Source: an uncultured Actinomycetes bacterium (GTDB lineage: Bacteria; Actinomycetota; Acidimicrobiia; Spongiisociales; ZC4RG35). Taken from it: a DNA stretch of 64,000 nucleotides. The notes beneath the pieces are model-generated. The model saw nothing but the letters and a program-made list of their open reading frames with translations. It was not told the origin of the DNA and did not search any database. Positions within the stretch are counted from its first letter, which is position 1, and the number at the start of each line of letters is the position of its first letter. The stretch is from positions 11,992 through 75,991 of the forward strand of contig CAVSQY010000014.1 in assembly GCA_963730285.1 (NCBI GenBank), in the 5' to 3' direction. Of this stretch, positions 1 through 56,757 are shown in pieces. A program made the translations under genes and the position numbers.

Positions 1-2295
1 CTCCACCACATAGCCCAGCCGCTCCCACTCGTCTGCCGCATCGGAGATACGACCCTCCCATTCCAGTCCGGCCGGTTCCGGGATCTCACCCTGTGGTGGC
101 TCCAGGTCGAGGCGGCGGGCCCAGAAGGCCAGCATTTCCCTACCCCAGTTGTCGTCGGCCAACCCGGGCGAGCCCAACATGGCCGTATATCTGCCGCCGG
201 CGATCTGGGGTTCGACGACTCCGACCCAGGCACCTTCCATGGCCAGGGCCGCTCCGCCCACGGCGATCTCGTGGTCACGGGAGCCCTCGATCCGATCGAG
301 GATCCTCTCGATCATCTCCCCTGAATCCGGGTCGCCCCGCCGAAGCGCCAAGGTGGCTGCGACGATCAGGGACTCGACCTCGGTGGAGATGCAGGTTCGC
401 TGACCGAGGACCAACGACAGTGCTTGGTCCACCTCTTCCCAACGACCGGTGGCGAGATGGATAGACGAGAGTGTGGACACCGCGGCGATGTACCAGGCTT
501 CGAGCTCTCGTGAGGTGGTGAAGTCGACCAGCTCCTCGAAGTATTCGGCGGCCCTTCCCAGCTCCAACGAGCCGAGGTGGGTCTTGCCGAGGTTGTTGTA
601 GGCGCGCGCCGTCCACTCATCGGCTCCCGACTCTCTCCCCAGGCGGATCGCATCCTCGATGCGGGCCCTACCCACCGGGTCTCCCAGCCAGTGACGGCAC
701 ATTCCCACAGTGGTGTTGGCATGAACCTCGACCCGGGGCGAACCTGCGGCTCGAGCCACTGCCGCCGCCTCCTCGCCATGGTCGATCGAGGCGGAAGCGT
801 CACCTTCGACTGCGAGCACCCAGGAGAGCACGGCGTGGGCGAGTGCCAACTCCTCCGAAGGCGGTTCACCCTGCAAGACCTCGATCGCCAATTCGGCCTC
901 CCGGCGACAGGCCGGCAGGTCGTTCTCACGTGACTCGAAGTAGGCGAGCCAGGCTCGGGCCCGTGCCTCATCGAGCTTGGTGTCCATCATCTCCACGCGT
1001 TGGTCCGCCAGATCGCATGCCTCCTGGAAGAGGTTGACCAGGCAATGCTCCATCGCCGCTTCGAGCAGCGTGTCCTCGAGCACCTTCTCGGGCATCTTCG
1101 ACTGGTATTCGAGCGCGTTGGCATAGTGGACCGCCGCCTGACGATGGGCGCCTCCTCTCGAGGCGTCCCTCGCCGCCCGTAGCGAGTAGTCCACCACCTT
1201 GTCGCCATCACCGGCGCCGACGGCGTGATAGGCGAGCCGGGCGATGTCGGGTGAGTCGGCCGCAGTCTCTTCGAGCAGCCCCAGAAGACGCCGATGGAGG
1301 TCCATCTTCAATGCCGGGGGAACCGCCTGCTCCAGACTGTCCCTGATCAGGGCATGCCGGCAGGTCACCTGGCCGTTGACCGAATCGAGCAGCCTGCGTC
1401 GGACCGCCAGATCCACATAGCTCCCCGCCTCCGGATTCAGCTTGGTCAGCAACGTGAGTGGCAGACCGTCTGGGGAGAGCGCCACCTGGTAGAGAACCTC
1501 CAGTGCATCCGGGGAGAGTCGGGCGGCCCGGACCATGACGGCGTTGGCGATGGTGGCGGGCAGCGTCGACCCCGGATGACTCACCACCTCCTCGACCAGG
1601 AAGGGATTGCCCAGGGTGGCGGCGTGGATCTCGACCGGATCGAGGTCCAGGCCCTTGGTCAGCTCCTCCACGCCTTTCAGCGACAGAGGTTGCAGATCGA
1701 TTCGTGTTCCCACCAGGGCCAGGTCGGCGGTGACCAGGTGGAGCGGGTGGGTCAGGTCCAGCTCCTCGTTCCGGAATGTCACGACCAGACAGCTCCGGGT
1801 CGGCCCGATCCTCCGGCCCAGATACCTGACCAGGCCCAGTGTGGCCTCGTCGGCCCACTGCAGGTCCTCGATGGTCAGGACCACACGGTCACTCTTGAGC
1901 AGGTCGAGCATCCCGGCATAGACCGCCGGGCGGCCGGAGCCGGCCCGAACGTCCCCACGCAGCTCATCGGGGAACGCATCCAGCAGATCGAACAACGGGG
2001 CGAAGGCCGTGGGCACACCTACCGGCTCGCACGCCGCCTCCAGGATCCGGTAGCGGTGATCCAACCCGGCGATGAACGTCCGAAGCAGCGAAGTCTTCCC
2101 GAAACCGGCCTCGCCGGAGATGAGGGCCACGCTCCCGGTGCTGACCGGCTCGGTCATCAGGGCGTGGAGCATCTCCAGCTGCTCGTCACGTTCGACCAGA
2201 GGCTGCAGTCCGAACACGATGCCCGACGCTACACCCCGGTTTGATCGTCCGGCTCGGGGGTCGGTCGTCGAGCTTGGGGTCTGAACGGTAACCAT
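1..2295 (-). CDS. Large STAND/AAA ATPase-domain transcriptional regulator (LuxR/AfsR-type ATP-binding regulator), N-terminal ~765 aa; C-terminus lies beyond window start
   Basis: Reverse-strand frame (codons ending at positions ≡ 0 mod 3) is open from 2295 to position 1, so it is absent from the ORF track. Manual translation gives MVTVQTPSS...FGLQPLVERDEQLEMLHALMTEPVSTGSVALISGEAGFGKTSLLRTFIAGLDHRYRILEAACEPVGVPTAFAPLFDLL (Walker A GEAGFGKT at ~2085-2125), then ...ATLGNPFLVEEVVSH (GNPF motif typical of this family, ~1590-1630), and at window start ...EWEGRISDAADEWERLGYVVE. The + strand ORF 1294..2244 is its antisense shadow. Confidence 0.7.
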   Translation of the reverse strand, partial: MVTVQTPSSTTDPRAGRSNRGVASGIVFGLQPLVERDEQLEMLHALMTEPVSTGSVALISGEAGFGKTSLLRTFIAGLDHRYRILEAACEPVGVPTAFAPLFDLLDAFPDELRGDVRAGSGRPAVYAGMLDLLKSDRVVLTIEDLQWADEATLGLVRYLGRRIGPTRSCLVVTFRNEELDLTHPLHLVTADLALVGTRIDLQPLSLKGVEELTKGLDLDPVEIHAATLGNPFLVEEVVSHPGSTLPATIANAVMVRAARLSPDALEVLYQVALSPDGLPLTLLTKLNPEAGSYVDLAVRRRLLDSVNGQVTCRHALIRDSLEQAVPPALKMDLHRRLLGLLEETAADSPDIARLAYHAVGAGDGDKVVDYSLRAARDASRGGAHRQAAVHYANALEYQSKMPEKVLEDTLLEAAMEHCLVNLFQEACDLADQRVEMMDTKLDEARARAWLAYFESRENDLPACRREAELAIEVLQGEPPSEELALAHAVLSWVLAVEGDASASIDHGEEAAAVARAAGSPRVEVHANTTVGMCRHWLGDPVGRARIEDAIRLGRESGADEWTARAYNNLGKTHLGSLELGRAAEYFEELVDFTTSRELEAWYIAAVSTLSSIHLATGRWEEVDQALSLVLGQRTCISTEVESLIVAATLALRRGDPDSGEMIERILDRIEGSRDHEIAVGGAALAMEGAWVGVVEPQIAGGRYTAMLGSPGLADDNWGREMLAFWARRLDLEPPQGEIPEPAGLEWEGRISDAADEWERLGYVVE

Positions 2296-2311
2296 GATCG
2301 GGCCTCCCGGC

Positions 2312-2563
2312 TCAGGAGTGCTCGCTCACCGGGTAGATCTCGTCTGCCACCAGGCCATGGGCGTCCCGATGAACCCTGTTCGCCAACTCGGCGCTCTCTG
2401 CTTCGACGAGGCAGAAGATCTTGCCGGCGGCCTCATCGACCCAATAGCGCTTGTAGTCGACACCGAAGCTGCCCTGGGTCTCCAGGTCTTTGGCATGGGC
2501 CTGGGCCACGTCGGTCTCCGATACTCCACCATCGATGGTGTGCACATCCATGAACAACGGCAT
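2312..2563 (-). CDS. DUF4242 family protein (SCO4226-like small nickel-binding protein family), paralogue of 26850..27103
   Basis: 83-aa ORF MPLFMDVHTIDGG...VHRDAHGLVADEIYPVSEHS; C-terminal 20 aa nearly identical to the ORF at 26850. Sits 16 nt upstream of, and co-directional with, the STAND regulator start at 2295. Confidence 0.75.
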   Translation of the reverse strand: MPLFMDVHTIDGGVSETDVAQAHAKDLETQGSFGVDYKRYWVDEAAGKIFCLVEAESAELANRVHRDAHGLVADEIYPVSEHS

Positions 2564-2619
2564 GCGAGCTCCTTTCTCGTCTCTTGCTCACAACCTATGA
2601 GGCGGGCCACCCGAGCGCA

Positions 2620-2637
2620 TAGGGAGAATTCCCTATC
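2620..2637. promoter_or_regulatory. Perfect 7-bp inverted repeat ATAGGGA-gaat-TCCCTAT in the leader region of the DUF4242/regulator operon
   Basis: Read directly: atagggagaattccctat, about 57 nt upstream of the DUF4242 start (2563, - strand). Candidate operator or RNA hairpin. Confidence 0.3.
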
Positions 2638-2876
2638 TTGGGAAATGGGCCAGGTGGCGACTCACGATCTGGCGTGATCGAACCACGGTGATGCTGGTCG
2701 TGGAGCCGGCTGCTCGGCGGCTTCCGATCTGACTTCGACCCACCATGGGCACTGCCACCCCCAAAGATGGGGCGACCTCCCGATGTGCCGTCATCGCTCC
2801 CGCCATACGTTTTGTTGGGTGATGAGCGCAACGACGTCCCCCGACCGGGGAGCGTCCCGAATCAAGGAGGAAGCCC

Positions 2877-3320
2877 ATGACGATTGCGATTCACAGACGA
2901 CTCCGGCAGCAGAGGTCCATGATCGGTGTGGGGTTGGTGGCAGTCCTGACCGTGGCCACCGTCGTGGCTCTCCGTCTCGACAGCCGGCCGATCACGGTGA
3001 CGGACGATCCCGCCCCGGCAGTCCAGAGTGGTGCGTTGGACCCGGCCCAGAGTGCGGCGACCGTACAGCCTCTCAGGGACGTCGAGATCCATCAGAAGTG
3101 GCTGGAGTCGGTCCGGAACGGGGCCATCGGGTCCGGTCAGGCGGCCGATGCGGGGAGCAACGCTGCGACCTTCATCGAGACGTCGGGTGGGGGTCTGGTT
3201 CGGGGTGATGCCGGCTCGGGCCTCGTGCCCCAGCGAGCTGGAGACGCTTCCCTGCCCGCAACCGTGCCGGCTCAGCCGGCTGGAGCGGGTAATGGGTTCG
3301 GGGCCCTTCCCGCCCGATAG
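2877..3320 (+). CDS. Hypothetical membrane-anchored protein (N-terminal TM helix, Ala/Gly-rich tail)
   Basis: ORF with strong SD (caaggagga) 8 nt upstream of ATG; hydrophobic segment MIGVGLVAVLTVATVVAL. Confidence 0.5.
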   Translation: MTIAIHRRLRQQRSMIGVGLVAVLTVATVVALRLDSRPITVTDDPAPAVQSGALDPAQSAATVQPLRDVEIHQKWLESVRNGAIGSGQAADAGSNAATFIETSGGGLVRGDAGSGLVPQRAGDASLPATVPAQPAGAGNGFGALPAR

Positions 3321-3580: not shown

Positions 3581-4039
3581 GTGACCGAGTGGAACACATG
3601 GCTTCTATTCATCCACGTGGCCAGTGCGATGGTCTGGCTCGGCGGTGGCATTGCGATGTGCCTGCTTGGCTACCGGGCTCGTGGAAGCGCCGACGCCGCC
3701 GAGTTGGGAGACTTCGGTCGTACTCTTTCCTACGTCGGTCTGCGGGCGTTCACTCCTTCCGTGGTGCTCGTACTTGTAACCGGCATATGGATGGTCCTGG
3801 CTGGAACGGGAGATTTTGGCGATCTCTGGGTCATCATCGCCCTGGTGGCCTTCGTGACTGCGTTCCTCATCGGCGCCGTCTATCTGAGTCGCCAAGCCCT
3901 TCTCCTGGAACGTTTGAGTCGAGACGGCGACACCCCAAGGGCACGCCTCGCACTGCAACGTTGGCTGACCGGCTACAGCACCGTGCTCCTCGTTCTCCTC
4001 GTCGCTCTCTGGGACATGATCTTCAAGCCGGGTATATGA
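3581..4039 (+). CDS. Small integral membrane protein (4 predicted TM helices), hypothetical
   Basis: 152-aa ORF with four hydrophobic stretches (WLLFIHVASAMVWLGGGIAMCLLGY ... VLLVLLVALWDMIF); AT-rich upstream region 3391-3580. Confidence 0.6.
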   Translation: MTEWNTWLLFIHVASAMVWLGGGIAMCLLGYRARGSADAAELGDFGRTLSYVGLRAFTPSVVLVLVTGIWMVLAGTGDFGDLWVIIALVAFVTAFLIGAVYLSRQALLLERLSRDGDTPRARLALQRWLTGYSTVLLVLLVALWDMIFKPGI

Positions 4040-4096: not shown

Positions 4097-4516
4097 TCAG
4101 AAGTCGTGCCCCCAGGGGCCGACTCCGTAGATCCGCTCGACAGTGACCCGGGTCACGAATCCGGGGGGCATGTCCCGCATGGGGAATCGCTCACCAGGCC
4201 CGATGTAGAACTCCGCCAGATGATCCATCCACTCCAGGGCCTCTCCTTCGAAGATCCTGGCGCGACCCTGGATGACCACATAGGGGTGGAGCCCCTGACC
4301 GGTGTTCTCGTGTGCCTGGAAGGAGACGGCCACACGGGGGTCACGCCGTATCGAGTCCAGCTTGTGCTGGTCGGGGAACGTGGCGAACACGAGCTCGTCA
4401 CCATCGAAACCTGCCCAGGTCACGGTGATATGGGGGGTCCCATCCGCATCCAGTGTCACGAGGTGGCCTAGTGGCCCGGTGGCGAGGAGATCGCGAACCG
4501 ATTGGGGAATGTCCAT
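4097..4516 (-). CDS. PPOX-class F420-dependent / pyridoxamine 5'-phosphate oxidase family protein
   Basis: The ORF 4097..4795 has a Pro/Arg-rich improbable N-terminus. The internal Met (MDIPQSVRDLLATGPLGHLVTLDADGTPHITVTWAG...PYVVIQGRARIFEGEALEWMDHL) gives a 139-aa protein matching the split-barrel PNPOx fold family. Confidence 0.65.
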   Translation of the reverse strand: MDIPQSVRDLLATGPLGHLVTLDADGTPHITVTWAGFDGDELVFATFPDQHKLDSIRRDPRVAVSFQAHENTGQGLHPYVVIQGRARIFEGEALEWMDHLAEFYIGPGERFPMRDMPPGFVTRVTVERIYGVGPWGHDF

Positions 4517-4809
4517 AACGACCGAGGTTACAACCGGAGCCAGATTCGGTGGTCCGACGGCATCACGCAGGGGTGTTGAGCTGGGTCTGGGCGGTGAGTT
4601 TGGCCTCTGACCGGGGGCGGGCCGATCTGAGAATGTAGTGGGTTTGATCGGGTTTGGGCAGCGGGATCGGATTATTGGGGCCGGCGAGCGCGGGCAGCAC
4701 GTGTCAAGGTTCTGCTGAGACATTCCGAAGACATCTGGAGAGCAGAATCGAATCCGGAGTTCCTCCGGGGTGTCTCGTTGAAAGTTTGCGGTCACGTTGG
4801 GAGTAACCC

Positions 4810-5928
4810 TTGCACGTCGCCTCGGCGGAATTTAGGAGGGCACCGGCACCTCAGCGTCGGCTCATCGCCGCGTCCCTGGTGGTCGCGACCGTCGGCTTTC
4901 TGGCCGTTCTGATCCTGGTCATCCCGGAGGGGAACCCTGCCGTTGTCCTTTTGTCGGCGATCCCGGTCGCCATCGCCGGCGGCTTCTTTGGTCTGCGCTT
5001 CGTTGTCGCTTTCATGACCATCCTGGCCATCGGCACGGTGGCCGTGGTCGAGTGGGTGGGGCCCGGCTTCGGCCAGATGATCCAGACATACCGGGGCATA
5101 CCCATCGTCATGCTGATCCTGATGGGCTTGGTCGTCGGTCGGCTGCGTGACCTGTCCGATGAGATGAAGTGGCAGTTGGAGCGAAGCAAGAAAGTGGAAG
5201 CCAAGCTCCGCACCACCCAGCAGCAGCTGGAGGAGTCACTGGCGGCCAAGGACCAGCTGATTGCCTCGGTTGGCCACCAACTCCGCACCCCGCTCACCGC
5301 GGTGCTCGGGTTTGCCGAGATGCTGCAGGCCGGGAACAACACCGACATGACGCCCGTCGAGCGTGAGGAGATGGTGAGTCACATCGCCCAGCAGGCTTTC
5401 CGCATCTCCGCCGCCATCGACGACCTCCTGGTGGCAGCTCGCATCGAGATCGGGAAACTCGAAGTCACCAGGGTTCCGATCGCACTGCGAGCCCAGATCG
5501 CACAGGTCATCGAGAACTGGGATTCCGATGAGGTCGGCAACATCACGGTCAGCGGCGACGACACCCGGGCCGTAGGTGACCCCGCCCGGGTTCGACAGAT
5601 TCTGCGAAACCTGATTTCCAATGCTCTGGCCTACGGGGGCGGTGACGTGGCGGTGAGGGTCGGGACCAATTCGACTCATGCCCTCGTCGAGGTGTCCGAC
5701 AACGGGCCCGGGCTCCCTGCCGACCAATGGGAGGCGATTTTCGAGCCCTATTACCGCTATCACTCCGAGGTCAGCCAGCCCGGCTCGGTCGGGCTCGGGC
5801 TCACGGTCTCCCGGGGTCTGGCGGAGGTCATGGACGGCGACCTCCAATACCGGTACCAGGAAGGGGAGGGCACCTTCGCGTTTCGCCTTCCCCTCGCCAC
5901 CTTGAACCCGGGGCCGTTCTCCGAATAG
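4810..5928 (+). CDS. Membrane sensor histidine kinase (4 TM + HisKA + HATPase_c); no adjacent response regulator
   Basis: H-box DQLIASVGHQLRTPLTAVLGFAEML, N-box RQILRNLISNALAYGG, G-boxes DNGPGL / GLGLTVSRGLAEVMDGDL. Kinase core paralogous to 30323..31813 and 56758..58356. Confidence 0.85.
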   Translation: MHVASAEFRRAPAPQRRLIAASLVVATVGFLAVLILVIPEGNPAVVLLSAIPVAIAGGFFGLRFVVAFMTILAIGTVAVVEWVGPGFGQMIQTYRGIPIVMLILMGLVVGRLRDLSDEMKWQLERSKKVEAKLRTTQQQLEESLAAKDQLIASVGHQLRTPLTAVLGFAEMLQAGNNTDMTPVEREEMVSHIAQQAFRISAAIDDLLVAARIEIGKLEVTRVPIALRAQIAQVIENWDSDEVGNITVSGDDTRAVGDPARVRQILRNLISNALAYGGGDVAVRVGTNSTHALVEVSDNGPGLPADQWEAIFEPYYRYHSEVSQPGSVGLGLTVSRGLAEVMDGDLQYRYQEGEGTFAFRLPLATLNPGPFSE

Positions 5929-6016
5929 GTAGCGGGGCCCCTCGTTTTGAGTAGTCGGATCTTCACCTGCCGGCCTTACTTTCGGCGCTGAGCTGCGGTT
6001 CGGTCAGGGAGGCAGC

Positions 6017-6348
6017 ATGCGAATCTCATTAGGGCGGACGATGACACTCAGACGTGGGCTCACCCTGGTCGTCACGCTCATGCTCGTGGCGGCCTGTGCC
6101 GGATCCGATGGCGCAGGGTCGAACGACTCGAGCGATGCCGGAACCACCACCACGACCGGCGGCGCCGAGGCGACCACGAGGGTGACGTCGAAGCCACCTA
6201 TGACGGGATGGTCCTCATGGAGGAGACCTTCGCCCGCCACGACTACGACATGACGGCGATCCCCGAGGACGAGCTGAAGGCGCTGTCGGACCCGGAGTTG
6301 GCTGCTGCGGCTCAGCGCATCCCCGACTATTGCGGTGTGGGCGGCTGA
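6017..6348 (+). pseudogene. Putative lipoprotein with apparent frameshift (signal peptide/lipobox in one frame, conserved-looking C-terminus in another)
   Basis: Frame from 6017 (SD agggagg): MRISLGRTMTLRRGLTLVVTLMLVAACAGSDGAGSNDSSDAGTTTTTGG... runs into low-complexity text and stops at 6253. The other frame reads ...EGDVEATYDGMVLMEETFARHDYDMTAIPEDELKALSDPELAAAAQRIPDYCGVGG* ending at 6348. Both frames are open across the ACC-rich tract ~6140-6200. Confidence 0.3.
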
Positions 6349-6423
6349 CTAGCTGCAGCGCCAACTTCCTGCCGGTCTCGGGGGTATTGCTTTCTGTCTC
6401 AGGGCCCCTGTACTGTCGAACAC

Positions 6424-7761
6424 ATGTTCGATCTGCTACTCGAGACCAGTTGGGATGACGCCTATCTCGACGAATTGACCGAGGCGGCCCTGTCGGAGCC
6501 GGCTGATGCAGATGTTTCGATTCCAGCGGGACTGGCCGAGATGGCCCCAGGCCCGTTTCTCGCCGCAATCCTCTCGACCATCGACGTGACGACTCTCTCC
6601 GGCTACGACCGCGTCGTCGTGCTGCAAGCCCGGCAGCGGATGGCTTCGCACTCCGAGGCGGCCACGTATGAGGCGACGTCTGCCGTCGCCGATCACTACT
6701 TCGAGCTGGATGGCGACTTCGTGTCGGCGGATGAGGCCGCCGAGCTCGAGATCCGCGCTGCGCTGAGACTCACCCGGAGGTCCGCCAACATCCGCCTGAC
6801 CCTGGCCCACGACCTCCATCATCGGCTTCCTGCCGTTGGCCGGGCGCTGGCCGCAGGCGACATCGACGTGCCCCGTTCCCGGGTTCTCTGCCACGAGACC
6901 GGTCACCTCGACGACGACACCGCACGCCGCGTGGTCGACCTGGTCATCGATGAAGCTCCCCGATTGACCACCGGTCAGCTGGGTGCCCATCTCCGTCAGG
7001 TGTGTGTCGAGGCTGATCCCGACGACGCCAAGATCCGCTATGAAGAGGCGCTCGAGGAGCGTCGGGTGACGAGAGAGGCCACCGTTTCGGGAACCACCAA
7101 CCTGTTCCTCCTGGACGTGGAGACAGATCGGGCAGCCGAGGCCTTCAAACACATCGACCGCCTGGCCAGGAGTCTCAAGACGAAGGACCAGAAGCGTGGC
7201 ATGGACCAGATTCGCGCCGATGTCGCCCTCGATTTGCTCTGTGGTAAGCCGTCACAAGCGAGCTCAGGCAAGGGGAGCATCAACATCCGTGTTGATCTCG
7301 CCACCCTGGCGCAACTCGACGACAACCCAGCCGAATTGGGTGGGTACGGGCCGGTCATCGCAGACATCGCCCGCCAGGTCACCGAACGTCAGCAGTCCTC
7401 CCAGTGGAAGTGGACACTCACCCACCCCGACAGTGGGATGGTCCTCGACACCGGGATCACCCGGAGGCGGCCCAACGCCACGCAACAACGGTGGGTGGAA
7501 GCCGAGAACCCCACCTGCACCTTCCCCGGTTGTCGGATGCCCGCTGAGGAGTGTGACATCGACCACTTGCGGCCGTGGGCGGAAGATGGGCCGACCGCAG
7601 TCGGCAACCTGAATCCGGACTGTCGTCACGATCACGTTCAATTCACCAAACATGGCTGGAGGCATTACCGGCTGCCCGACGGCGACTACCTCTGGATCAG
7701 CCCTCTCGGCCATCGGTACACCACCAGCGGTCGCGCCCCACCGCCGGATCCGGAGGAGTGA
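6424..7761 (+). CDS. HNH endonuclease with N-terminal DUF222 domain (REP13E12-type; commonly associated with mobile DNA in actinobacteria)
   Basis: 445-aa ORF; C-terminal HNH signature CTFPGCRMPAEECDIDHLRPWAEDGPTAVGNLNPDCRHDH; N-terminal DUF222-like region (VVLQARQRMASHSEAATYEAT...RLTRRSAN). Confidence 0.8.
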   Translation: MFDLLLETSWDDAYLDELTEAALSEPADADVSIPAGLAEMAPGPFLAAILSTIDVTTLSGYDRVVVLQARQRMASHSEAATYEATSAVADHYFELDGDFVSADEAAELEIRAALRLTRRSANIRLTLAHDLHHRLPAVGRALAAGDIDVPRSRVLCHETGHLDDDTARRVVDLVIDEAPRLTTGQLGAHLRQVCVEADPDDAKIRYEEALEERRVTREATVSGTTNLFLLDVETDRAAEAFKHIDRLARSLKTKDQKRGMDQIRADVALDLLCGKPSQASSGKGSINIRVDLATLAQLDDNPAELGGYGPVIADIARQVTERQQSSQWKWTLTHPDSGMVLDTGITRRRPNATQQRWVEAENPTCTFPGCRMPAEECDIDHLRPWAEDGPTAVGNLNPDCRHDHVQFTKHGWRHYRLPDGDYLWISPLGHRYTTSGRAPPPDPEE

Positions 7762-16930: not shown

Positions 16931-17005
16931 TATTGAATTGTGGGCCCACGTGGACTTGAACCACGGACCTCATCCTTATCAGGGATGCGCTCTAACCGGG
17001 CTGAG
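16931..17005 (-). tRNA. tRNA-Ile (anticodon GAT)
   Basis: Reverse complement GGGCCCATAGCTCAGCCCGGTTAGAGCGCATCCCTGATAAGGATGAGGTCCGTGGTTCAAGTCCACGTGGGCCCA; 7-bp acceptor stem, anticodon loop CTGATAA, T-loop TTCAAGT. Confidence 0.85.
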
Positions 17006-22474: not shown

Positions 22475-25400
22475 TCAACTCAAGGTGAGGTCGGCGAAAT
22501 TGGCCCAGGATTTGCCGAATTCCCACCAGCCCTCGACAAGGGGTCGCCTCAGGGAGGTGTTCCTCGTGTAGACCAATGGGATCACCGCAGCCAGCTCGGC
22601 CACGGCGAGTCGGTCTGCCTGGTGGAAGAGCCCGAGCCGGGTCCGCTCGTCGCGCTCCATTCGGGCCCGCTCGACCAGGTCGTCGAATGCCTCGCTGGAG
22701 AATCTCCCGGTGTTGTCTGCTCCCTCGGTGTGAAGCAGCAGCCTGAGGAAGTACTCGGGATCGGTGTATCCCGGATACCACCAGGTTGGAGCGATATCGA
22801 CATCTTCCCAAACCTCACGAAGTCTTTGGGAGGAGGGGCCCAGAGTCGTGGTCTCCACCTCGATGCCCAAGTGTCGGCGCCACTGGCCGGCGGCTCTCTC
22901 CACCAGAGTCGTATAGACGATGTGGGGTATATCGAAGGCTGCCATCCGGATCGGCGCATCCGGTCGTGCCTGGCCGACGAGCGACCGCGCCAGGTCGACG
23001 TCGAAGACCGGTGCGACGTCGGGCGTGTGCCCGGCAAGTGCCGGGGGGACCACGCCACCGGTGGCCGGGATCAGATGCTCGCCCAATCCTTCGCACAGGG
23101 CGGCTCGATCCAACGATTGGGCCAGGGCGAGGCGAAGACGGGGATCGGCCATGTTCTTTCGGCCATGGTTGAGAACGAAGTAGATGAGCCCTGCCGTCGG
23201 TTCCCGATTCACCAGATCGGTTGGGATCTGCTCCGACCCGGCGCCGTCCCATGGCCCGCTGATCCAGGCGAGGTCGTGTCGTTCGTCGAGAAAGCCCTCC
23301 ATGACCTCGTTGACGGGCGCGGTGTGCCACACCACGGTCTCCACGTTTCCGAGACGATGGCCGACATAGTCGGGTCGGCGATCCAGGACGACACGATTGG
23401 CCTTGTGCTCAGTCCGACGGAAGGCTCCGCTGACCACCTCGACATCGAGATCGCACCACCGCTCGGGTTCCGCTTCGATGACATGACGGGGCTGAGGGCC
23501 GCAGTCCGGCCGGTTCAACATGCCGAGGAAGTAAGGAGCGGGCGCATTCAATGAGAACTGAACGACCCTGTCGTCCAACGCTCTCACGCCGATCAGGTCG
23601 GGGTCACTGCTGCGACCAAGCGCATGGTCGGCGGCGCCTTCGAGGACATAGAGCATGGCCACGCTCACCCCGGGGGAGTCGGGGTCGAGGTTGCGTTTCA
23701 GACCGAACTCGACGTCGTGGGCGGTGAGTGGGGCCCCGTCAGACCATTTGAGCCCGTCACGGAGGGTGAACCGGTAGATGAGACCGTCGTCGGAGATCTC
23801 CCAACGCTCCGCCAGGGAGGGGACGATGGTGTCGTCGGGCCATCTCTCCACCAGACGATCGAAAAGCGCCATCTGCAGCTGGATGTCCTGGAGGGCGTAG
23901 GAGCGGACCGGGTCGGGGACATCGAAAAAGGCCGGACCGGCGAAAAGGAGCGTCTCGGTGGCCTCCTGGCTCGGTGCGGGGCTCCACAGCTCGAAGGCCC
24001 TCTGATAGGTGGCGTTCGCCTCGGCGAACCGGAGGGCGGTGTGATAGGCCAGCCCCAACTTGAACAGGACCAGCGTGGTGGTGGGCGTGTCTCCACTCCC
24101 CTCCAGGAGAGGGAGAAGCTGTCGATAGTGCTCGATTGCCTCCTCCAAGGCATGGCGTCCCCGAGCCAGATCGCCTGCCCGTAGCAACGCTGGGGCGGCC
24201 CGGTCGTCGACCCCTGCCGCCGTCCAATGCCGGGCTAGAAGCTCAACGACCTCTTCGTCATTCCCCTCGAATTGGCGTTCCAGCCACTCGGCGGCATGTC
24301 GGTGCAGGGCCCGTCTCCTACCCTCGGGAAGGGTGCGATAGGCGGCCTCACGGGTGAGGGCGTGCTTGAACAGATATTCCGCCTGCGGCCATCGGCGTGC
24401 CTCGACCAGCAGGTCAGACCTCAAGAGGTCCTGGACGGCGGGAAGGACCCCACCTCTCTCGTCGGCGATGCCCTGGAGCAGGGGGAGGCCGAAGCTCCGG
24501 CCCAGCACTGAGGCCGAGGTCAGCACCATGTGGGTGGAAGGATCGAGACGGTCGATGCGCGACTGGACCACCTTCTCCACCGTCTCAGGCACGGTCAGGG
24601 CAGCGTCACGGTCGAAGACCCATCCCGACCCCGAAGGGGTGAGGGCGCCCTCATCGATCAGCGACCCGATCAGCTCCTCGAGATAGAAGGGGTTCCCCTC
24701 GGAGAGGTCGAGGAGCCGCCCGGTGGTCTCCTCGGGGAGATCGGCGGTGCCGAGTAGCGAGGAAAGCATGGCTCGTTGGTCGGAGTCGCCGAGGGCGCCG
24801 AGTGTGATCTCGGTGATCAGATGGGGCACCCGATGCCGGGCCGCCTCTGCGATGCGCCACGACACGTGACCGGGAGACGGGCGGCTGCTGACCACATACA
24901 GGATGCGGTGACTCTCGGCGAGTGAGGTCAGATTCCCTAGAAGCTCCACCGAAGTCGGGTCGGCCCAGTGGGCGTCTTCGATAACCATCGCGGTGGGGGA
25001 CCTCTCTGAGATGGCAGTGAGCAGCTCTGCCACCACCTCGAACGTGCGGAATTGGATTGCTTCCGGCGCCAGCGATAGCCGGGTCTGCTGGTCGGGGGTC
25101 AGGCTGAGACCGAGAAGACGCGTCAGATAGGCATACATCGGCTCGGCCGGCTCGTCCAGCAGCTCTTCGAGGCGGTTGTGCAGCGTTCGCCGGGAGGGGA
25201 GGTCCTTTTCGTCGATGCCCAACCCGAGCCATGACCGGATCAGGTCGCGGAACGGCCAGTAGGGGGTGGCCTCACCGTAGGGATCACAGTGACCGAGCAG
25301 CCAGGTAAACCCGATCCCGGAAGGCGACCGGCGCAGCTCGGAGATGATCCGAGTCTTTCCCACGCCGGCGTCGCCACTGAGTACCAGGACTCCGCCGATG

Positions 25401-26740
25401 CCGCGTTCGAGCGATTCGAGCATGTGGCCCGCCTGGGCCATCTCTGACTCACGACCGACAAGTGGGGCGCGGAGACGTCTTCCCAGCCTTGCCTTGTCGG
25501 CGGTTCGGCGCACCGCCGTCGGCCGCCACATGACTCCCGATCCCGAAGAAGCGGACTCCTCCCAGTCGAAGGCGTCGATCATGAGACGACGGGTGTGGTC
25601 GTCGACCAGCACCGAATGGGGGCCTGGGTCGCTGAGCATTGTCTGAAGCGGTCCCTCTTCCATGCCGAAACCGGTCTCGAAGGGCAGTGTCACCGGCAGT
25701 GTGGACACGACACACCGGCCCTCACCGGTGGGCCCCAATGTCTCCCCGACGGCCAGCGCTGCCCGGATGGCTCGATAGGTGTCGTCCTCACGGGCGATGG
25801 GTGCCCCGAAGACGGCAAGGGCACGCGTCCCGTCTTCGTCGACGATCGTCCCTCCGAATCGGGCCAATGCCGAACGCGTCGCCTCTAGTGCGGCGGCCGA
25901 GCCGGTGGCCACCAAGAGCAGGGTGGCGAGCCGGTTCCCTGGGGGCAATGGCCGACCGATGACAGTTGCAGGACGGGCCTGCGGTCGATGTGACGGGGAT
26001 GGCGAGAGAGTCGGGTCCTGTGCCAGGATCCGATCGAGCAGGTTCTGGAGCTCGGGCCCAGGCTCGATCCCCAGTTCCTCGATGAGAAGCGCGCGCACGG
26101 TGTCGAAGGCCCGAAGTGCGTCGGCCTGCCGGCCCGAACGATAGAGCGCCAGCACGTATCGGCTCCACAAGTCCTCACGCAACGGGTGCTCTTCGAGCAG
26201 GGAGTGGAGGTCGACTGCGGCCTGGTCGTGACTGCCGGATCGGAGTTGGGCATCGGCCATGTCGACCTGGGCCTGAAGACGCACCGCCTCCAATCTGGCC
26301 TTGAGCGGGCGGACGACGTCGGCCTCGCGGGCGTCCACCAGGGGCTCGCCACGCCACCAGGAGAGGGCCTCACCGAGCCGACCGACCGTCGTCTCCGGGT
26401 CCTCCCACGTCGCCTCCCTGGCCTCGGTGACTGCCAGGACGAATCGGTGGGCGTCGACGTCTGATGTCTCGAGTGCCAGCTGGTAGCCGGGACCCTTGGT
26501 GGCGATCAACCCTTCGGGGAGCACCGAGCGCAGATGGTGGATGTAGGTCTGAAGTGCTTTGGCCGCCGTCGCCGGAGGGGTTTCGCCCCAAAGGCCGTCG
26601 ATGAGCCTGTCGCTGGTGATCAACCTTCCCACGTCGGCCGCCAGCAACGTCAGAAGGGCGCGCTCCATCGGACGACTGACCTCGATTCGGTGGCCATCGT
26701 CACTCAATTCCAGCGGTCCGAGCACCCCGACGAGCACCAC
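22475..26740 (-). CDS. 1421-aa multidomain one-component regulator: SARP-type winged-helix DNA-binding + BTAD / degenerate class-III cyclase-like domain / STAND (NB-ARC-like) P-loop ATPase / helical-TPR region / C-terminal solute-binding-protein family 5 (SBP_bac_5) domain
   Basis: aa 1-250: LGPLELSDDGHRIEVSRPMERALLTLLAADVGRLITSDRLIDGLWGE + BTAD (…YRSGRQADALRAFDTVRALLIEELGIEPGPELQNL). aa 270-390: cyclase-homology-like RLATLLLVATGSAAALEA...FGGTIVDEDGTRALAVFGAPIAREDDTYRAIRAAL (metal-binding Asp positions not conserved). Walker A VLVLSGDAGVGKT (aa ~451-463), Walker B MVIEDAHWAD, GNPFYLEEL motif. aa ~935-1421: ...LAERWEISDDGLIYRFTLRDGLKWSDGAPLTAHDVEFGL = canonical SBP_bac_5 signature (DppA/OppA/NikA family). 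No signal peptide, so the SBP domain is cytoplasmic. Confidence 0.85.
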   Translation of the reverse strand: MVLVGVLGPLELSDDGHRIEVSRPMERALLTLLAADVGRLITSDRLIDGLWGETPPATAAKALQTYIHHLRSVLPEGLIATKGPGYQLALETSDVDAHRFVLAVTEAREATWEDPETTVGRLGEALSWWRGEPLVDAREADVVRPLKARLEAVRLQAQVDMADAQLRSGSHDQAAVDLHSLLEEHPLREDLWSRYVLALYRSGRQADALRAFDTVRALLIEELGIEPGPELQNLLDRILAQDPTLSPSPSHRPQARPATVIGRPLPPGNRLATLLLVATGSAAALEATRSALARFGGTIVDEDGTRALAVFGAPIAREDDTYRAIRAALAVGETLGPTGEGRCVVSTLPVTLPFETGFGMEEGPLQTMLSDPGPHSVLVDDHTRRLMIDAFDWEESASSGSGVMWRPTAVRRTADKARLGRRLRAPLVGRESEMAQAGHMLESLERGIGGVLVLSGDAGVGKTRIISELRRSPSGIGFTWLLGHCDPYGEATPYWPFRDLIRSWLGLGIDEKDLPSRRTLHNRLEELLDEPAEPMYAYLTRLLGLSLTPDQQTRLSLAPEAIQFRTFEVVAELLTAISERSPTAMVIEDAHWADPTSVELLGNLTSLAESHRILYVVSSRPSPGHVSWRIAEAARHRVPHLITEITLGALGDSDQRAMLSSLLGTADLPEETTGRLLDLSEGNPFYLEELIGSLIDEGALTPSGSGWVFDRDAALTVPETVEKVVQSRIDRLDPSTHMVLTSASVLGRSFGLPLLQGIADERGGVLPAVQDLLRSDLLVEARRWPQAEYLFKHALTREAAYRTLPEGRRRALHRHAAEWLERQFEGNDEEVVELLARHWTAAGVDDRAAPALLRAGDLARGRHALEEAIEHYRQLLPLLEGSGDTPTTTLVLFKLGLAYHTALRFAEANATYQRAFELWSPAPSQEATETLLFAGPAFFDVPDPVRSYALQDIQLQMALFDRLVERWPDDTIVPSLAERWEISDDGLIYRFTLRDGLKWSDGAPLTAHDVEFGLKRNLDPDSPGVSVAMLYVLEGAADHALGRSSDPDLIGVRALDDRVVQFSLNAPAPYFLGMLNRPDCGPQPRHVIEAEPERWCDLDVEVVSGAFRRTEHKANRVVLDRRPDYVGHRLGNVETVVWHTAPVNEVMEGFLDERHDLAWISGPWDGAGSEQIPTDLVNREPTAGLIYFVLNHGRKNMADPRLRLALAQSLDRAALCEGLGEHLIPATGGVVPPALAGHTPDVAPVFDVDLARSLVGQARPDAPIRMAAFDIPHIVYTTLVERAAGQWRRHLGIEVETTTLGPSSQRLREVWEDVDIAPTWWYPGYTDPEYFLRLLLHTEGADNTGRFSSEAFDDLVERARMERDERTRLGLFHQADRLAVAELAAVIPLVYTRNTSLRRPLVEGWWEFGKSWANFADLTLS

Positions 26741-26779: not shown

Positions 26780-26799
26780 TTACCGGGCGTTTACCGGGC
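26780..26799. promoter_or_regulatory. Direct repeat TTACCGGGC x2 with 11-bp phasing in the divergent regulator/DUF4242 intergenic region (candidate SARP-type binding site)
   Basis: cTTACCGGGCgtTTACCGGGCt at 26779-26800; located 40 nt from the regulator start (26740, -) and 50 nt from the DUF4242 start (26850, +). Confidence 0.35.
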
Positions 26800-26849
26800 T
26801 AGGGCAATTTCGACGCCGCAAGGGTCAATCGATCTGAGGAGGTATCAGA

Positions 26850-27103
26850 TGCCCCTGTTCATGGATGTGCACCAGCAACTGCCCGACGGTGCGACCGAAT
26901 CGGACGTGGCCGAAGCTCACGCCGCCGATCTGGCCACTCAGGACAGGTTCGGAGTCCACTACCAGCGGTACTGGGTTGATGAGAAGGCGGGCAAGGTGTT
27001 CTGTCTGGTGGAGGCACCCGACGCCGATGCCGCGGTCGCGGTGCACCGCGAGGCGCACGGGTTGGTCGCCGACGAGATCTACCCCGTCAGCGAACACAGT
27101 TGA
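26850..27103 (+). CDS. DUF4242 family protein (SCO4226-like), paralogue of 2312..2563
   Basis: MPLFMDVHQQLPDGATESDVAEAHAADLATQDRFGVHYQRYWVDEKAGKVFCLVEAPDADAAVAVHREAHGLVADEIYPVSEHS; strong SD gaggagg upstream. Confidence 0.8.
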
Positions 27104-27117
27104 TAGGGGGAAGGGCG

Positions 27118-27672
27118 ATGCGAAAGACCACGATTGCCGTGATGACTGCCCTGGCCGTGATGCTGGGGGCGGTCCCGGCTCTGGCCCACGACCACGGCCA
27201 TGAAGAGTGGCGCGACGTGAGACACGATCTGCGCCAGGCCTCCAAGGTGACAGCCAAGTATCACCGGGTGTCGAAGGCGATCCGGGACGGGTTTGGCCCA
27301 TTCGCCATACCCGAAGAGGATGGGGGGACCCTTCTCACCATCCGCGGCGAGGCGATTACCTGTTTCGACAGTCCCACCGGGGGGATGGGCGTCCACTATG
27401 TCCGTCACATCGATGGCACCGTGGACCCGGCGGACCCCGAGGCTCTCGTCTATGAGGTGGGCCGGCATGGGCGGCTCCGGCTGGTGGCCTTGGAGTACAT
27501 CATCCCCGAGGAGTTCGTCGATCCGGCAGACCCGCCGATGCTCTTCGGTCGGACGATGCACCACCACTCGTATCTGCCCGTCTTCATCCTCCACGTGTGG
27601 TTGTGGAAATGGAACCCATCGGGCCTGTTCGCCGACTTCAACCCGAGAGTAAAGGACTGTCCCGCGGCCTGA
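27118..27672 (+). CDS. Secreted hypothetical protein (His-rich N-terminus after signal peptide)
   Basis: Signal peptide MRKTTIAVMTALAVMLGAVPALAHDHGHEEW; 15 nt after the DUF4242 stop, likely co-transcribed. Confidence 0.6.
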   Translation: MRKTTIAVMTALAVMLGAVPALAHDHGHEEWRDVRHDLRQASKVTAKYHRVSKAIRDGFGPFAIPEEDGGTLLTIRGEAITCFDSPTGGMGVHYVRHIDGTVDPADPEALVYEVGRHGRLRLVALEYIIPEEFVDPADPPMLFGRTMHHHSYLPVFILHVWLWKWNPSGLFADFNPRVKDCPAA

Positions 27673-30322: not shown

Positions 30323-31813
30323 TCAGGTCGCGATGGGCAGGGAAAGCTCAAAGATGCTCTTGCCGTCTTCGTAGTTGTAGGTGAGGTCTCCGTCCATCAA
30401 GGATGCGAGCTTCCGCGAGACGGTGAGCCCGAGCCCGATGGATGCGGCCAGTCTCTCCCTGTTCGAGGCCCGCTGATATGGCTCGAATATGGTGCCTTGG
30501 TCGTCGAGCGGTATGCCCTCCCCATCGTCGACAACCGCAACACAGGCCAGAGGCCCGCAGTCGTAGGTCCGCACTTCGACGGTGTCGCCTCCATAGCGGA
30601 AGGCATTGGAGATCAGGTTGCGCAGGACCTGGCGAACCCGGGCGGGATCACCCATCCCGCGGATCGACGGCCCGCTGAGCACTACCCGTCCGCCCTCGCC
30701 GTTTTCGCCCAGGGCCTCGACTACCTGTGCCGACTGGGCCCGGAGGTCAACCGATACCTTGGCCACCTTGAGCGTCTCGTTGTCGGCCCGCGCCGCCACC
30801 AGCAAGTCCTCGACGATGTTGGTCAGGTCGGCGGTTTGATCGGCGATGCTCGTGACGATCTCGACTTGCTCGGCGGGCGACAGGGATGGGAGCTCGCTCC
30901 GCATCAGCTGGGCGAATCCCAGCACTGCGGTGAGTGGTATCCGCAGCTCGTGGGACACCGATGCGATCAGCTGATCTTTCGAGTCGAGCATCCCGCGAAG
31001 CTGGTCTTGAGCCTCGACCTGCTCGGTGATGTCGACCACATTCGCCACCAGATGGAGAGGCTTGCCTTCGGAGTCCCGCACCAGGGCGGTTGAGATGATC
31101 CCGTATGAGGTCGAACCGTCGCGGCGGAGATAGTGGAGTTTGGCTTCCGCCGAGGCCACCTCCCCATTGGCGACCTGGCGAAAGCGGGTCATGCTCTCCT
31201 CGCGGTCGTCGGGCGCTACCACCTCGAGAATGGTTCGACCCTCGATCTCCGCTTCGGTGTAACCGAGCATGTTGCAGCCAGCCGCGTTCACCCGGAGGAA
31301 TCGCCCGTCCGTGGGGCTCACCAGGGCCATTCCCGAGGCGGCCGACTCGAAGGCGAGGCGGAACCTTTCCTCACTGGTGGCGACGGCTTCCTCTGCGCGC
31401 TTTTGGCCGGTGATGTCCTGCATCTGCACCACGAAATGTTGAATTTCTTCCTCGGGATCCACAACGGGGGCAACATTGATTCGGGCCCAGACGATGCTGC
31501 CGTCGCTGTGGAGATACCGCTTCTCCCAGTTGGCCACTGGTGTCTCGCCGTCGAGGAGAGCTCGTAGCCATTCTTCACTCTGGGCCATGTCGACTGGGTG
31601 GGTGATATCGGCGAAGTGCCGGCCGTCGAGCGCACCGGGCTCGCGACCCAGCATCATGTTGAGAGATCGGTTGGTTGCAATGAAGTCGCCCTCGCGGGAG
31701 GTGACAGCCATCGCTACCGAGGCGTGCTCAAAGATGGCGCGAAAGTGCCGATCGGAGTCCCACATGGGGTTTGTTTGAGAGTTGTCCTGGTTGTTGCGAG
31801 TGCTCATCGGCAA
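30323..31813 (-). CDS. Cytoplasmic PAS-PAS sensor histidine kinase (orphan)
   Basis: Two PAS modules (RAIFEHASVAMAVTSREGDFIATNRSLNMMLG...; RFRLAFESAASGMALVSPTDGRFLRVNAAGCNMLGY...), H-box DQLIASVSHELRIPLTAVLGFAQLM, HATPase GDPARVRQVLRNLISNAFRYGG...GLGLTVSRKLASLMDGDL. Confidence 0.85.
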   Translation of the reverse strand: MPMSTRNNQDNSQTNPMWDSDRHFRAIFEHASVAMAVTSREGDFIATNRSLNMMLGREPGALDGRHFADITHPVDMAQSEEWLRALLDGETPVANWEKRYLHSDGSIVWARINVAPVVDPEEEIQHFVVQMQDITGQKRAEEAVATSEERFRLAFESAASGMALVSPTDGRFLRVNAAGCNMLGYTEAEIEGRTILEVVAPDDREESMTRFRQVANGEVASAEAKLHYLRRDGSTSYGIISTALVRDSEGKPLHLVANVVDITEQVEAQDQLRGMLDSKDQLIASVSHELRIPLTAVLGFAQLMRSELPSLSPAEQVEIVTSIADQTADLTNIVEDLLVAARADNETLKVAKVSVDLRAQSAQVVEALGENGEGGRVVLSGPSIRGMGDPARVRQVLRNLISNAFRYGGDTVEVRTYDCGPLACVAVVDDGEGIPLDDQGTIFEPYQRASNRERLAASIGLGLTVSRKLASLMDGDLTYNYEDGKSIFELSLPIAT

Positions 31814-54274: not shown

Positions 54275-54629
54275 CGGCCTGAGAGCTGATCGTGCCCCCG
54301 CCTTCGAGGCCTCGTGCACGCCGTCGAGATCGGCCGCCAACTCGGGTCAGGCCGCCCTACGTCACCCGGTGCGATCCACTTAGGGCTGCTTCCTTCCGGA
54401 TCTGACCCGATTCATGGTGCTCCGCCGCGCAGGACCCAACCGTCAACATCGCGTGTCCGACCTCAGGGCAGTGAGCCCCGACGACACGTTGCCCCTCGGG
54501 CGGGGAACTCAGCCCCGCGTGGAGAGGATTTCGGGTTCAGGGCACCCCTAGCGCCCCGCCTATCACGATCGCGACGAAGGCTACCCAACGGGCACTCCTA
54601 GGCGAATAGGTCTTCGGGGTCCTGTTACC

Positions 54630-56327: not shown

Positions 56328-56418
56328 GGAGGGATCGCATAGTTTGGTCTAGTGCGCGGCACTGGAAATGCCGTTGGGGGTTTACGCTCCCTCGAGGGTT
56401 CAAATCCCTCTCCCTCCG
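56328..56418 (+). tRNA. tRNA-Ser (anticodon GGA)
   Basis: GGAGGGATCGCATAGTTTGGTCTAGTGCGCGGCACTGGAAATGCCG...GAGGGTTCAAATCCCTCTCCCTCCG; long variable arm; acceptor GGAGGGA/TCCCTCC. Confidence 0.85.
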
Positions 56419-56511
56419 CGAGTCATGAGTGGTAGGCCCAAGCCCGACCCGCTGACCTGCGGCCTACAACCTATGACTTACCGTCGGCGACATCTCCGGA
56501 TGTCGCCGCTC

Positions 56512-56602
56512 GGAGGGGTCGCATAGTCCGGTCTAGTGCGCGGCACTCGAAATGCCGTAGGGGGCTGACGCTTCCTCGAGGGTTCGAATCCCTCCCCCTC
56601 CG
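56512..56602 (+). tRNA. tRNA-Ser (anticodon CGA)
   Basis: GGAGGGGTCGCATAGTCCGGTCTAGTGCGCGGCACTCGAAATGCCG...GAGGGTTCGAATCCCTCCCCCTCCG. Confidence 0.85.
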
Positions 56603-56667
56603 CGACCGGGACCGACGCTCGTCGGTCCCAACGGTGCTCCAAGTACGGTCTCGATGACGCGCAACCT

Positions 56668-56757
56668 GGAGGGGTGTCCGAGTGGTCTAAGGAGACGGTC
56701 TTGAAAACCGTTGGGCCCAATAGGGTCTCGTGGGTTCGAATCCCACCCCCTCCGCCA
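56668..56757 (+). tRNA. tRNA-Ser (anticodon TGA), CCA encoded
   Basis: GGAGGGGTGTCCGAGTGGTCTAAGGAGACGGTCTTGAAAACCGTTGGGCCCAATAGGGTCTCGTGGGTTCGAATCCCACCCCCTCCGCCA. Confidence 0.85.

Follow-up and report, generated by a model that had tools for sequence, protein, structure and literature searches.

Two DUF4242 genes adjoin giant regulators

The DNA analysed here is a 64-kb stretch of contig CAVSQY010000014.1 (assembly GCA_963730285.1) from an uncultured member of the Acidimicrobiia; we refer to the whole of it as the window, all coordinates are window positions unless a comparison locus is named, and L-numbers denote the comparison loci that we fetched. Its GC content is ~63%, and the named close relatives of its proteins are proteins from Acidimicrobiia metagenome-assembled genomes. 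A reading of the sequence alone (the original prediction) had pointed out two genes for small proteins of the DUF4242 family (Pfam PF14026), each beside a giant STAND regulator, and had suggested that they form a conserved and undescribed module that senses a metal or another small ligand. A six-frame scan of open reading frames (ORFs) identified only two STAND nucleoside triphosphatase (NTPase) ORFs and only two DUF4242 ORFs in the whole window, adjacent in pairs (Table 1), and this adjacency proved to be enriched across genomes.

Both small proteins cover the 76-position PF14026 model in full, with scores of 79.1 and 80.7 bits for DUF4242-1 and DUF4242-2 (gathering threshold 28.5; E ~1e-22). 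They share 71% identity and, as had been noticed at the outset, their C-termini are nearly the same, the final 20 residues being identical except for a D/E exchange. DUF4242-1 is ~43% identical to SCO4226 (PDB 4OI3). The boundaries first given for DUF4242-1 hold, but DUF4242-2 starts at 26849 and not at 26850, one base off.

The first pair is co-directional with a 16-nt gap, as predicted: Regulator 1 starts at 2295 (-), past the DUF4242-1 stop codon, with GGGAGG 7 nt before its ATG. By its domains, this protein is a classical LAL-type STAND regulator. Pfam places AAA_16 (E 2e-16) at residues 32-171 and also detects TPR_12, and the Walker A motif reads GEAGFGKT. Given that the window edge truncates the gene, we examined a complete, near-identical copy in L001 (855-3512), which has AAA_16, TPR_12 and GerE; PF00196 (GerE) is present in the 885-aa full-length copy (L001-L004), outside the window, and NarL- and MalT-type helix-turn-helix (HTH) models of NCBIfam match residues 811-882. 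Of the two endings that the original prediction had considered for the missing C-terminus, it is therefore the LuxR (GerE) HTH that is found, and not a solute-binding domain.

Regulator 2 and DUF4242-2 are divergent across 108 nt, the short shared region that had been described. The regulator is a PimR/AfsR-like SARP-LAL protein with a predicted cytoplasmic OppA/MppA-like domain. Pfam detects Trans_reg_C (E 1e-8), BTAD (E 3e-37) and AAA_16 (E 2e-24), whereas the TPR part is weak (TPR_12, 26.3 bits, below the cut-off of 30.1). The AfsR model of NCBIfam matches residues 5-266 only, that is, the SARP part, with 152 bits against a cut-off of 1430. No guanylate-cyclase-like segment is matched by Pfam in Regulator 2 itself; PF00211 is found in many of its homologues, and a TOMM kinase/cyclase model aligns at residues 293-877. 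The C-terminal SBP5 domain was correctly predicted, but the connection drawn with NikA is not supported: it aligns over its full length with OppA, MppA and DppE (E 1e-41 to 1e-36) and with NikA over ~60 N-terminal residues only (E 3e-6), and NCBIfam ranks the families likewise. The Walker A motif reads GDAGVGKT where GEAGVGKT had been given, and the shared GNPF(L/Y)(V/L)EE motif is present as GNPFLVEE in Regulator 1 and GNPFYLEE in Regulator 2. The two regulators are distant relatives, with 27% identity over 301 aa of the NTPase region.

Table 1 Genes and candidate promoter elements of the two modules
Feature	Position	Strand	Description
Regulator 1	1-2295	-	LAL-type STAND regulator by domain content (AAA_16, TPR, GerE/LuxR HTH); truncated by the window edge; full length 885 aa
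DUF4242-1	2312-2563	-	83 aa, PF14026, SCO4226-like; precedes Regulator 1 in an operon of two genes
-10-like hexamer TAGGTT	2592-2597	-	Predicted DUF4242-1 promoter; corresponds in the alignment to the conserved TAcgTT, which begins 20 nt past the box
Class-A palindrome ATAGGGAattcTCCCTAT	2619-2636	-	Putative LuxR-HTH site of Regulator 1, upstream of DUF4242-1
Candidate distal half-site CAGATCGTGAGTCG	2659-2673	-	~32 nt upstream of the proximal box; weak, putative
Second class-A box AAAGATGGGGCGACCTCCCGATG	2763-2785	+	Match to the class-A matrix; before the divergent 147-aa gene
Membrane-anchored 147-aa protein	2877-3320	+	Divergent from DUF4242-1; unknown family; family 9 in L008 and L010
Regulator 2	22475-26740	-	1421 aa; SARP (Trans_reg_C+BTAD), AAA_16, TPR, C-terminal SBP_bac_5
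Putative SARP-type operator TTACCGGGC-GT-TTACCGGGC	26780-26799	+	Direct repeat, 11-nt period, upstream of DUF4242-2
DUF4242-2	26849-27103	+	84 aa, PF14026
Exported protein	27118-27672	+	184 aa, unknown family; 14 nt after DUF4242-2, co-directional; HDHGHEE after the signal peptide

The pairing is conserved across Actinomycetota

We analysed 80 loci from GTDB contigs, one genome per species, selected by DUF4242 similarity only (72-86% identity). Most are from Acidimicrobiia; the others come from Nocardioides, Angustibacter, Pedococcus, Frankiaceae, Pseudonocardiales, Gaiellaceae and Nitriliruptorales. Clustering of stop-to-stop ORFs was too noisy in GC-rich DNA, and genes were instead called with a purpose-made caller based on codon usage; domains were assigned by phmmer with the window's own domains as queries. 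The caller put DUF4242-2 on the antisense strand, and the DUF4242 genes were therefore set by homology.

Counting LuxR-STAND, SARP-TPR and cyclase-TPR proteins as large regulators, we found one at 35 of the 151 positions directly next to DUF4242 (rank +/-1) versus 13 of 657 positions from rank 4 outwards (odds ratio 15; Fisher p = 2e-17). In 48 of the 80 loci a regulator is no more than two genes away from DUF4242, and of the 48 loci with at least 3 kb on both sides, 34 have one at this distance. It is upstream on the same strand in 19 cases, divergent in 4 and preceded by DUF4242, the window type, in 3; L008-L010 have the order of the first window pair. In the commonest layout, DUF4242 has its own operator-bearing promoter, ~110 nt past the stop codon of the regulator.

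Three regulator architectures pair with DUF4242. In about 18 of the 80 loci the partner is a ~600-aa SARP(BTAD)+TPR regulator that has no NTPase; Pfam analysis of representative neighbours returned BTAD plus TPR (MalT-like TPR) for these and Guanylate_cyc plus TPR for one further protein. The idea that the partner is a STAND ATPase thus holds for both window loci and fails as a general rule. A second, divergent DUF4242 subfamily, of 97 aa, starting 'PRYLVERTF' and sampled from metagenome contigs, has a large regulator adjacent in 53 of 80 loci, nearly always LuxR-STAND, and in 44 of the 61 loci having at least 600 nt upstream.

The reverse test started from the regulator. Homologues of Regulator 2 with a fused SBP5 domain are a small group; all three examined at 50-68% identity have a divergent DUF4242 gene followed by the exported protein, an arrangement that a 34%-identical homologue lacks. 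Because the enrichment, the reverse test and the second DUF4242 subfamily agree, we conclude that the DUF4242-regulator partnership is real and general, which bears out the conservation claimed in the original prediction. Its novelty likewise stands: a full-text literature search on DUF4242, SCO4226, PF14026 and LAL binding sites, of incomplete coverage, returned no description of the pairing or of the operators reported below.

In twelve loci (L012, L042, L054, L078, L091-L095, L099, L102 and L138), two DUF4242 genes stand in tandem after one LuxR-STAND regulator, the 97-aa 'PRYLVERTF' type first and the 83-aa window type second. Several of these tandem loci have a class-A box, as defined below, for each gene.

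Promoter class matches the neighbouring regulator

Alignment of the 130 nt upstream of every DUF4242 gene yielded two promoter classes. In class A, a distal copy of ~cAaATCTGrGTGG is followed ~21-22 nt downstream by a proximal imperfect palindrome, aT.T.GGGG-N5-CCCCgATg, which ends a fixed 20 nt before a conserved TAcgTT (37 class-A promoters); ~35 nt further on lies AGGAGG. In class B, two copies of TCA(A/C)AC with a 12-nt period lie 83-93 nt ahead of the ATG. Class-A promoters have LuxR-STAND neighbours in 26 loci and SARP-only neighbours in none, one of the 26 additionally having a SARP-type regulator nearby; class-B promoters have SARP neighbours in 17 loci and LuxR-only neighbours in none. 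The promoter class tracks the DNA-binding domain of the neighbour without exception.

Class-B repeats matched 20 times in the upstream stretches versus 4 times in the remaining 2.2 Mb. A class-A position weight matrix (PWM) gave 35 matches inside the upstream stretches and 14 outside, several of the latter just downstream of a regulator gene. The GTDB loci having served to train this PWM, the metagenome loci of the 'PRYLVERTF' subfamily provided an independent set. In it, the 10.8 kb of sequence preceding the queried genes contain 17 matches and the remaining 903 kb contain 9. Of these nine, six immediately precede the second DUF4242 gene of a tandem arrangement, so that 23 of the 26 matches are directly upstream of a DUF4242 gene. 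The recognition helix of the LuxR domain co-varies with the half-site of the box; all seven CACTCAT boxes, for example, go with the helix 'ILMKLD'.

The class-B repeat upstream of DUF4242 takes the form GTCAAAC, twice, and goes with an NTPase-less SARP+TPR regulator in L015, L028, L031, L036, L039, L043, L047, L048, L053, L055, L056, L061, L064, L070, L072, L073 and L077. Several of these class-B loci have an AhpC/TSA-like redoxin gene between DUF4242 and the regulator.

Promoter elements in the window

The palindrome ATAGGGAattcTCCCTAT occurs once in the window (0.04 occurrences expected by chance), and the position of this box is conserved across loci with LuxR-STAND neighbours. The candidate half-site CAGATCGTGAGTCG resembles the distal repeat of class-A promoters and is conserved in L007 and L009. 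Downstream of AAAGATGGGGCGACCTCCCGATG follow TACGTT (2806-2811), an AGGAGG Shine-Dalgarno sequence and the ATG at 2877, and the arrangement of two divergent promoters is kept in L001, L007, L008 and L010. The membrane-anchored 147-aa protein encoded there, which has no match in Pfam or PADLOC, is a probable second target of Regulator 1.

At the second pair, the direct repeat TTACCGGGC-GT-TTACCGGGC also occurs once in the window (0.01 expected). Homologous intergenic regions have CTACCGG-like heptads with the same 11-nt period, in two copies in L087 and in four in L088 and L089. No canonical sigma-70 promoter (a -35/-10 pair) was found around either pair, as expected for activator-dependent promoters, and no intrinsic terminator was found there. 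Upstream of the DUF4242 genes no riboswitch or other RNA element was found, the Rfam scan of the window at gathering thresholds returning only tRNAs and the signal recognition particle (SRP) RNA.

Other genes near the modules

A further STAND ATPase ORF of at least 850 aa lies at 4159-6711 (-) of L001, two genes past Regulator 1 and beyond the left edge of the window; the region therefore holds a cluster of such regulators. In the metagenomic relatives L088 (2905-8359) and L089 (2100-8221), the SARP-STAND-SBP5 regulator, DUF4242 and the exported protein are found inside a row of NADH dehydrogenase genes, between nuoC/nuoD and nuoE/nuoF/nuoG.

Two paralogous HisKA/HATPase_c histidine kinases (4810-5928 (+) and 30323-31813 (-); 49% identity over 240 aa), the latter with two PAS domains, are each separated by 2-3 kb from one DUF4242 module. 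Neither kinase was noticed to have a response-regulator gene beside it, although no specific search for one was made. We considered the kinases as a third conserved partner and rejected them, as they occur near DUF4242 in only 4 of the 80 other loci, at ranks 3-9. The RNA genes of the window comprise three long-arm tRNA genes clustered within 430 nt at 56328-56754 (+), other tRNAs at 16941, 39293, 48705 and 58451, and a bacterial large SRP RNA at 54290-54568 (-).

Discussion

We propose that each DUF4242 gene is probably a target dedicated to the large, signal-sensing transcription activator next to it. The observations are the domain content, the conservation of the adjacency and of the cis-elements, and the agreement of element type with regulator type; from them we infer binding, activation rather than repression, the nature of the signal and the role of DUF4242 as follows. 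Regulator 1 would bind the lux-box-like palindrome at the -35 place in two divergent promoters. One of these would drive DUF4242-1 and the regulator's own gene, giving positive autoregulation, as the operon has Regulator 1 behind DUF4242-1, and the other would drive the small membrane protein. The SARP domain of Regulator 2 would bind the pair of heptad repeats with the 11-nt period, which immediately precedes a weak -10 element, and would thereby activate DUF4242-2 and the downstream exported protein. The signal may be read by the sensor parts of the regulators, TPR in both and the OppA/MppA-like peptide-binding domain in Regulator 2, and ATP-dependent STAND switching would free the DNA-binding domain, a mechanism established for AfsR and MalT. 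DUF4242 would then be the conserved output, comparable to afsS for AfsR and often accompanied by a small exported protein, and not the metal-sensing half of the pair. The joint ligand-sensing complex of the original prediction gives way to this relation of activator and target, to which the cis-elements point instead.

Both operator layouts match known ones and so have precedent in activator-target systems. The afs box bound by AfsR consists of two 11-bp direct repeats in place of the -35 element at afsS (PMC10936776), and the SARP-LAL regulator PimR binds heptamers with 4-nt spacers at a single target, pimM (PMC5930380), its operator having two to three such heptamers (PMC5930380, PMC3367932). 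As in the AfsR-afsS system of Streptomyces coelicolor, a large SARP+ATPase+TPR regulator lies here beside a small gene (63-84 aa class) whose promoter lacks a good -35 element and has tandem 11-bp direct repeats there (26780-26799 in the window). Unlike that system, the window has as its target a PF14026 alpha+beta protein and not AfsS, Regulator 2 adds a 490-aa SBP_bac_5 domain, and the pair is divergent where AfsR-afsS is tandem; no AfsK-like kinase was found, and the match to the AfsR model is confined to the SARP part. With PimR-pimM the second pair shares an N-terminal SARP domain, a LAL ATPase, the absence of a LuxR HTH, a single adjacent target and heptamers with 4-nt spacers. A cyclase-like region follows the SARP domain in PimR-type regulators; Pfam detects none in Regulator 2 itself and finds PF00211 in its homologues. 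The second pair differs in the additional SBP5 domain and in a target that is no PAS-LuxR regulator, and the annotated flanking genes showed no recognisable biosynthetic cluster. Regulator 1, for its part, resembles LAL regulators in its N-terminal Walker ATPase (AAA_16), TPR, C-terminal GerE HTH and length of ~885 aa, and in the palindromic box at the -35 position of its putative target promoters, whereas NCBIfam finds it similar to MalT and IniR over the HTH only.

Several observations weigh against this interpretation. In 31 of the 80 GTDB loci there is no regulator within two genes; such loci are often at contig ends, yet L033, L085, L046 and L051 have full flanks. The loci are related by descent, and the co-variation of box with regulator and of box with helix could in part be co-inheritance. 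Class A was defined after the sequences had been inspected, for which the metagenome set provides partial validation, and the class-B period is 12 nt versus the canonical SARP period of 11 nt. Finally, the co-operonic first pair would also suit a stoichiometric protein partnership.

Such a partnership would make DUF4242 a protein partner of the regulator (a co-sensor, a ligand carrier or a feedback inhibitor acting on the TPR/STAND sensor region), the two forming one sensing complex. MalT is known to be controlled by the protein effectors MalK, MalY and Aes. DUF4242-1 and Regulator 1 share an operon with a short gap, in an order that recurs in L008-L010, DUF4242 is the one invariant neighbour across regulator classes, and its very high conservation from one class of Actinomycetota to another (72-86% identity) points to an interaction surface under constraint. 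However, the sensor regions of the regulators paired with DUF4242 are barely related, with 28% identity over 113 aa between a LuxR-STAND and a SARP-TPR protein and nothing significant for other cross-class pairs, and some of the paired regulators have no NTPase at all. The regulators diverge fast (28-45% identity) and DUF4242 hardly (at least 72%, whichever regulator accompanies it), the opposite of what co-evolving partners would show, and DUF4242 most commonly stands behind a promoter and operator of its own past the end of the regulator gene. We therefore consider a sensing complex unlikely. It is compatible with the role of DUF4242 as a target, as an output may also feed back. A sensor domain common to the regulator classes was sought and rejected, only weak generic TPR similarity being found.

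A role in the homeostasis of nickel or another metal, with DUF4242 as the metal-binding protein and the regulators as the sensors, is suggested by the family itself. SCO4226 binds Ni2+ and is induced by nickel, with Asp43, Ser46 and His76 as ligands of the Ni-1 site (PMC4186839); at ~43% identity, the window proteins presumably share its dimeric ferredoxin-like fold (PDB 4OI3/4OI6). DUF4242 moreover has invariant His8, His23, Cys51 and His65 and a nearly invariant His69, and the N-terminus is rich in His in some of the exported proteins that are co-transcribed with it (HDHGHEE for the window protein, a (THD)n run for that of L067). Among the neighbouring genes scanned with Pfam, the only other metal-flavoured hint is a DUF2269 integral membrane protein (3581-4039 (+), ~1 kb from the first module) with a weak match to CopD (copper resistance D). 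Against this, SCO4226 has its nickel sites at the protein surface and at crystal contacts (Kd ~10 uM), and of these its authors regard only Ni-1 as conserved (PMC4186839), and both window proteins and their aligned relatives keep one Ni-1 ligand of three: Asp43 is retained, Ser46 is replaced by Ala and His76 by Tyr. The SCO4226-family nickel-binding equivalog model NF033706 scores them at 71.6 and 78.5 bits, below its cut-off of 125. The genomic context also differs, since SCO4226 lies beside mtpA and phoU and is under the control of PhoP and not of a STAND protein (PMC4991794, PMC2267785), as a member of a phoU/mtpA/phoRP neighbourhood (PMC4991794). No nickel enzyme or transporter turned up in the conserved families of neighbours or in those window genes that were annotated. 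Together with the OppA/MppA-like nature of the SBP5 domain, these results speak against the metal-sensing module of the original prediction, and we judge a metal-homeostasis role to be quite improbable. They also argue against extending the label 'nickel-binding protein' to this large subfamily of DUF4242.

AAA_16 regulators are many in Actinomycetota and STAND ATPases are common in defence systems, but chance adjacency, local synteny or an anti-phage (Avs-like) function is extremely unlikely given the fifteen-fold enrichment (p = 2e-17), the three orientations, the three regulator architectures, the second DUF4242 subfamily and the DNA-binding output domains of both regulators. PADLOC returned no match except that of the HTH region of Regulator 1 to a CARF-HTH model, and this result, the enrichment and the second subfamily already largely refute such readings.

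LAL and SARP-LAL/STAND regulators are numerous in Actinomycetota but little understood: most of them, AfsR included, have no known signal and no known target that is simple and defined (PMC10936776, PMC3282765). Systems in which a large activator of the STAND, LAL or SARP type has a dedicated target beside it are of a known kind; what is new here is the conserved target, the operators and the SARP-LAL architecture fused to SBP5. At its most speculative, and as a possibility that we hold to be doubtful, DUF4242 may be the effector of a widespread actinobacterial signalling axis, either as an AfsS-like small protein directed at other cellular machinery or through feedback on its STAND, LuxR or SARP activator. 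The Regulator 2 branch might then be triggered by a cytoplasmic peptide, such as a murein or oligopeptide fragment, that acts on the STAND switch through the OppA/MppA-like domain, with co-expressed exported proteins that have no relative of solved fold.

The modules represent a minimal, repeatedly evolved system: a single regulator, one or two promoters in which an operator can be recognised, and an invariant small protein as the output. The proposed use of a solute-binding-protein domain as the cytoplasmic sensor of a STAND transcription factor is a rare design. As modules of this kind are present in cultured organisms, namely Nocardioides taihuensis, Angustibacter sp. McL0619 and Actinospongicola halichondriae, the signal, ATP switching and operator recognition are directly testable.

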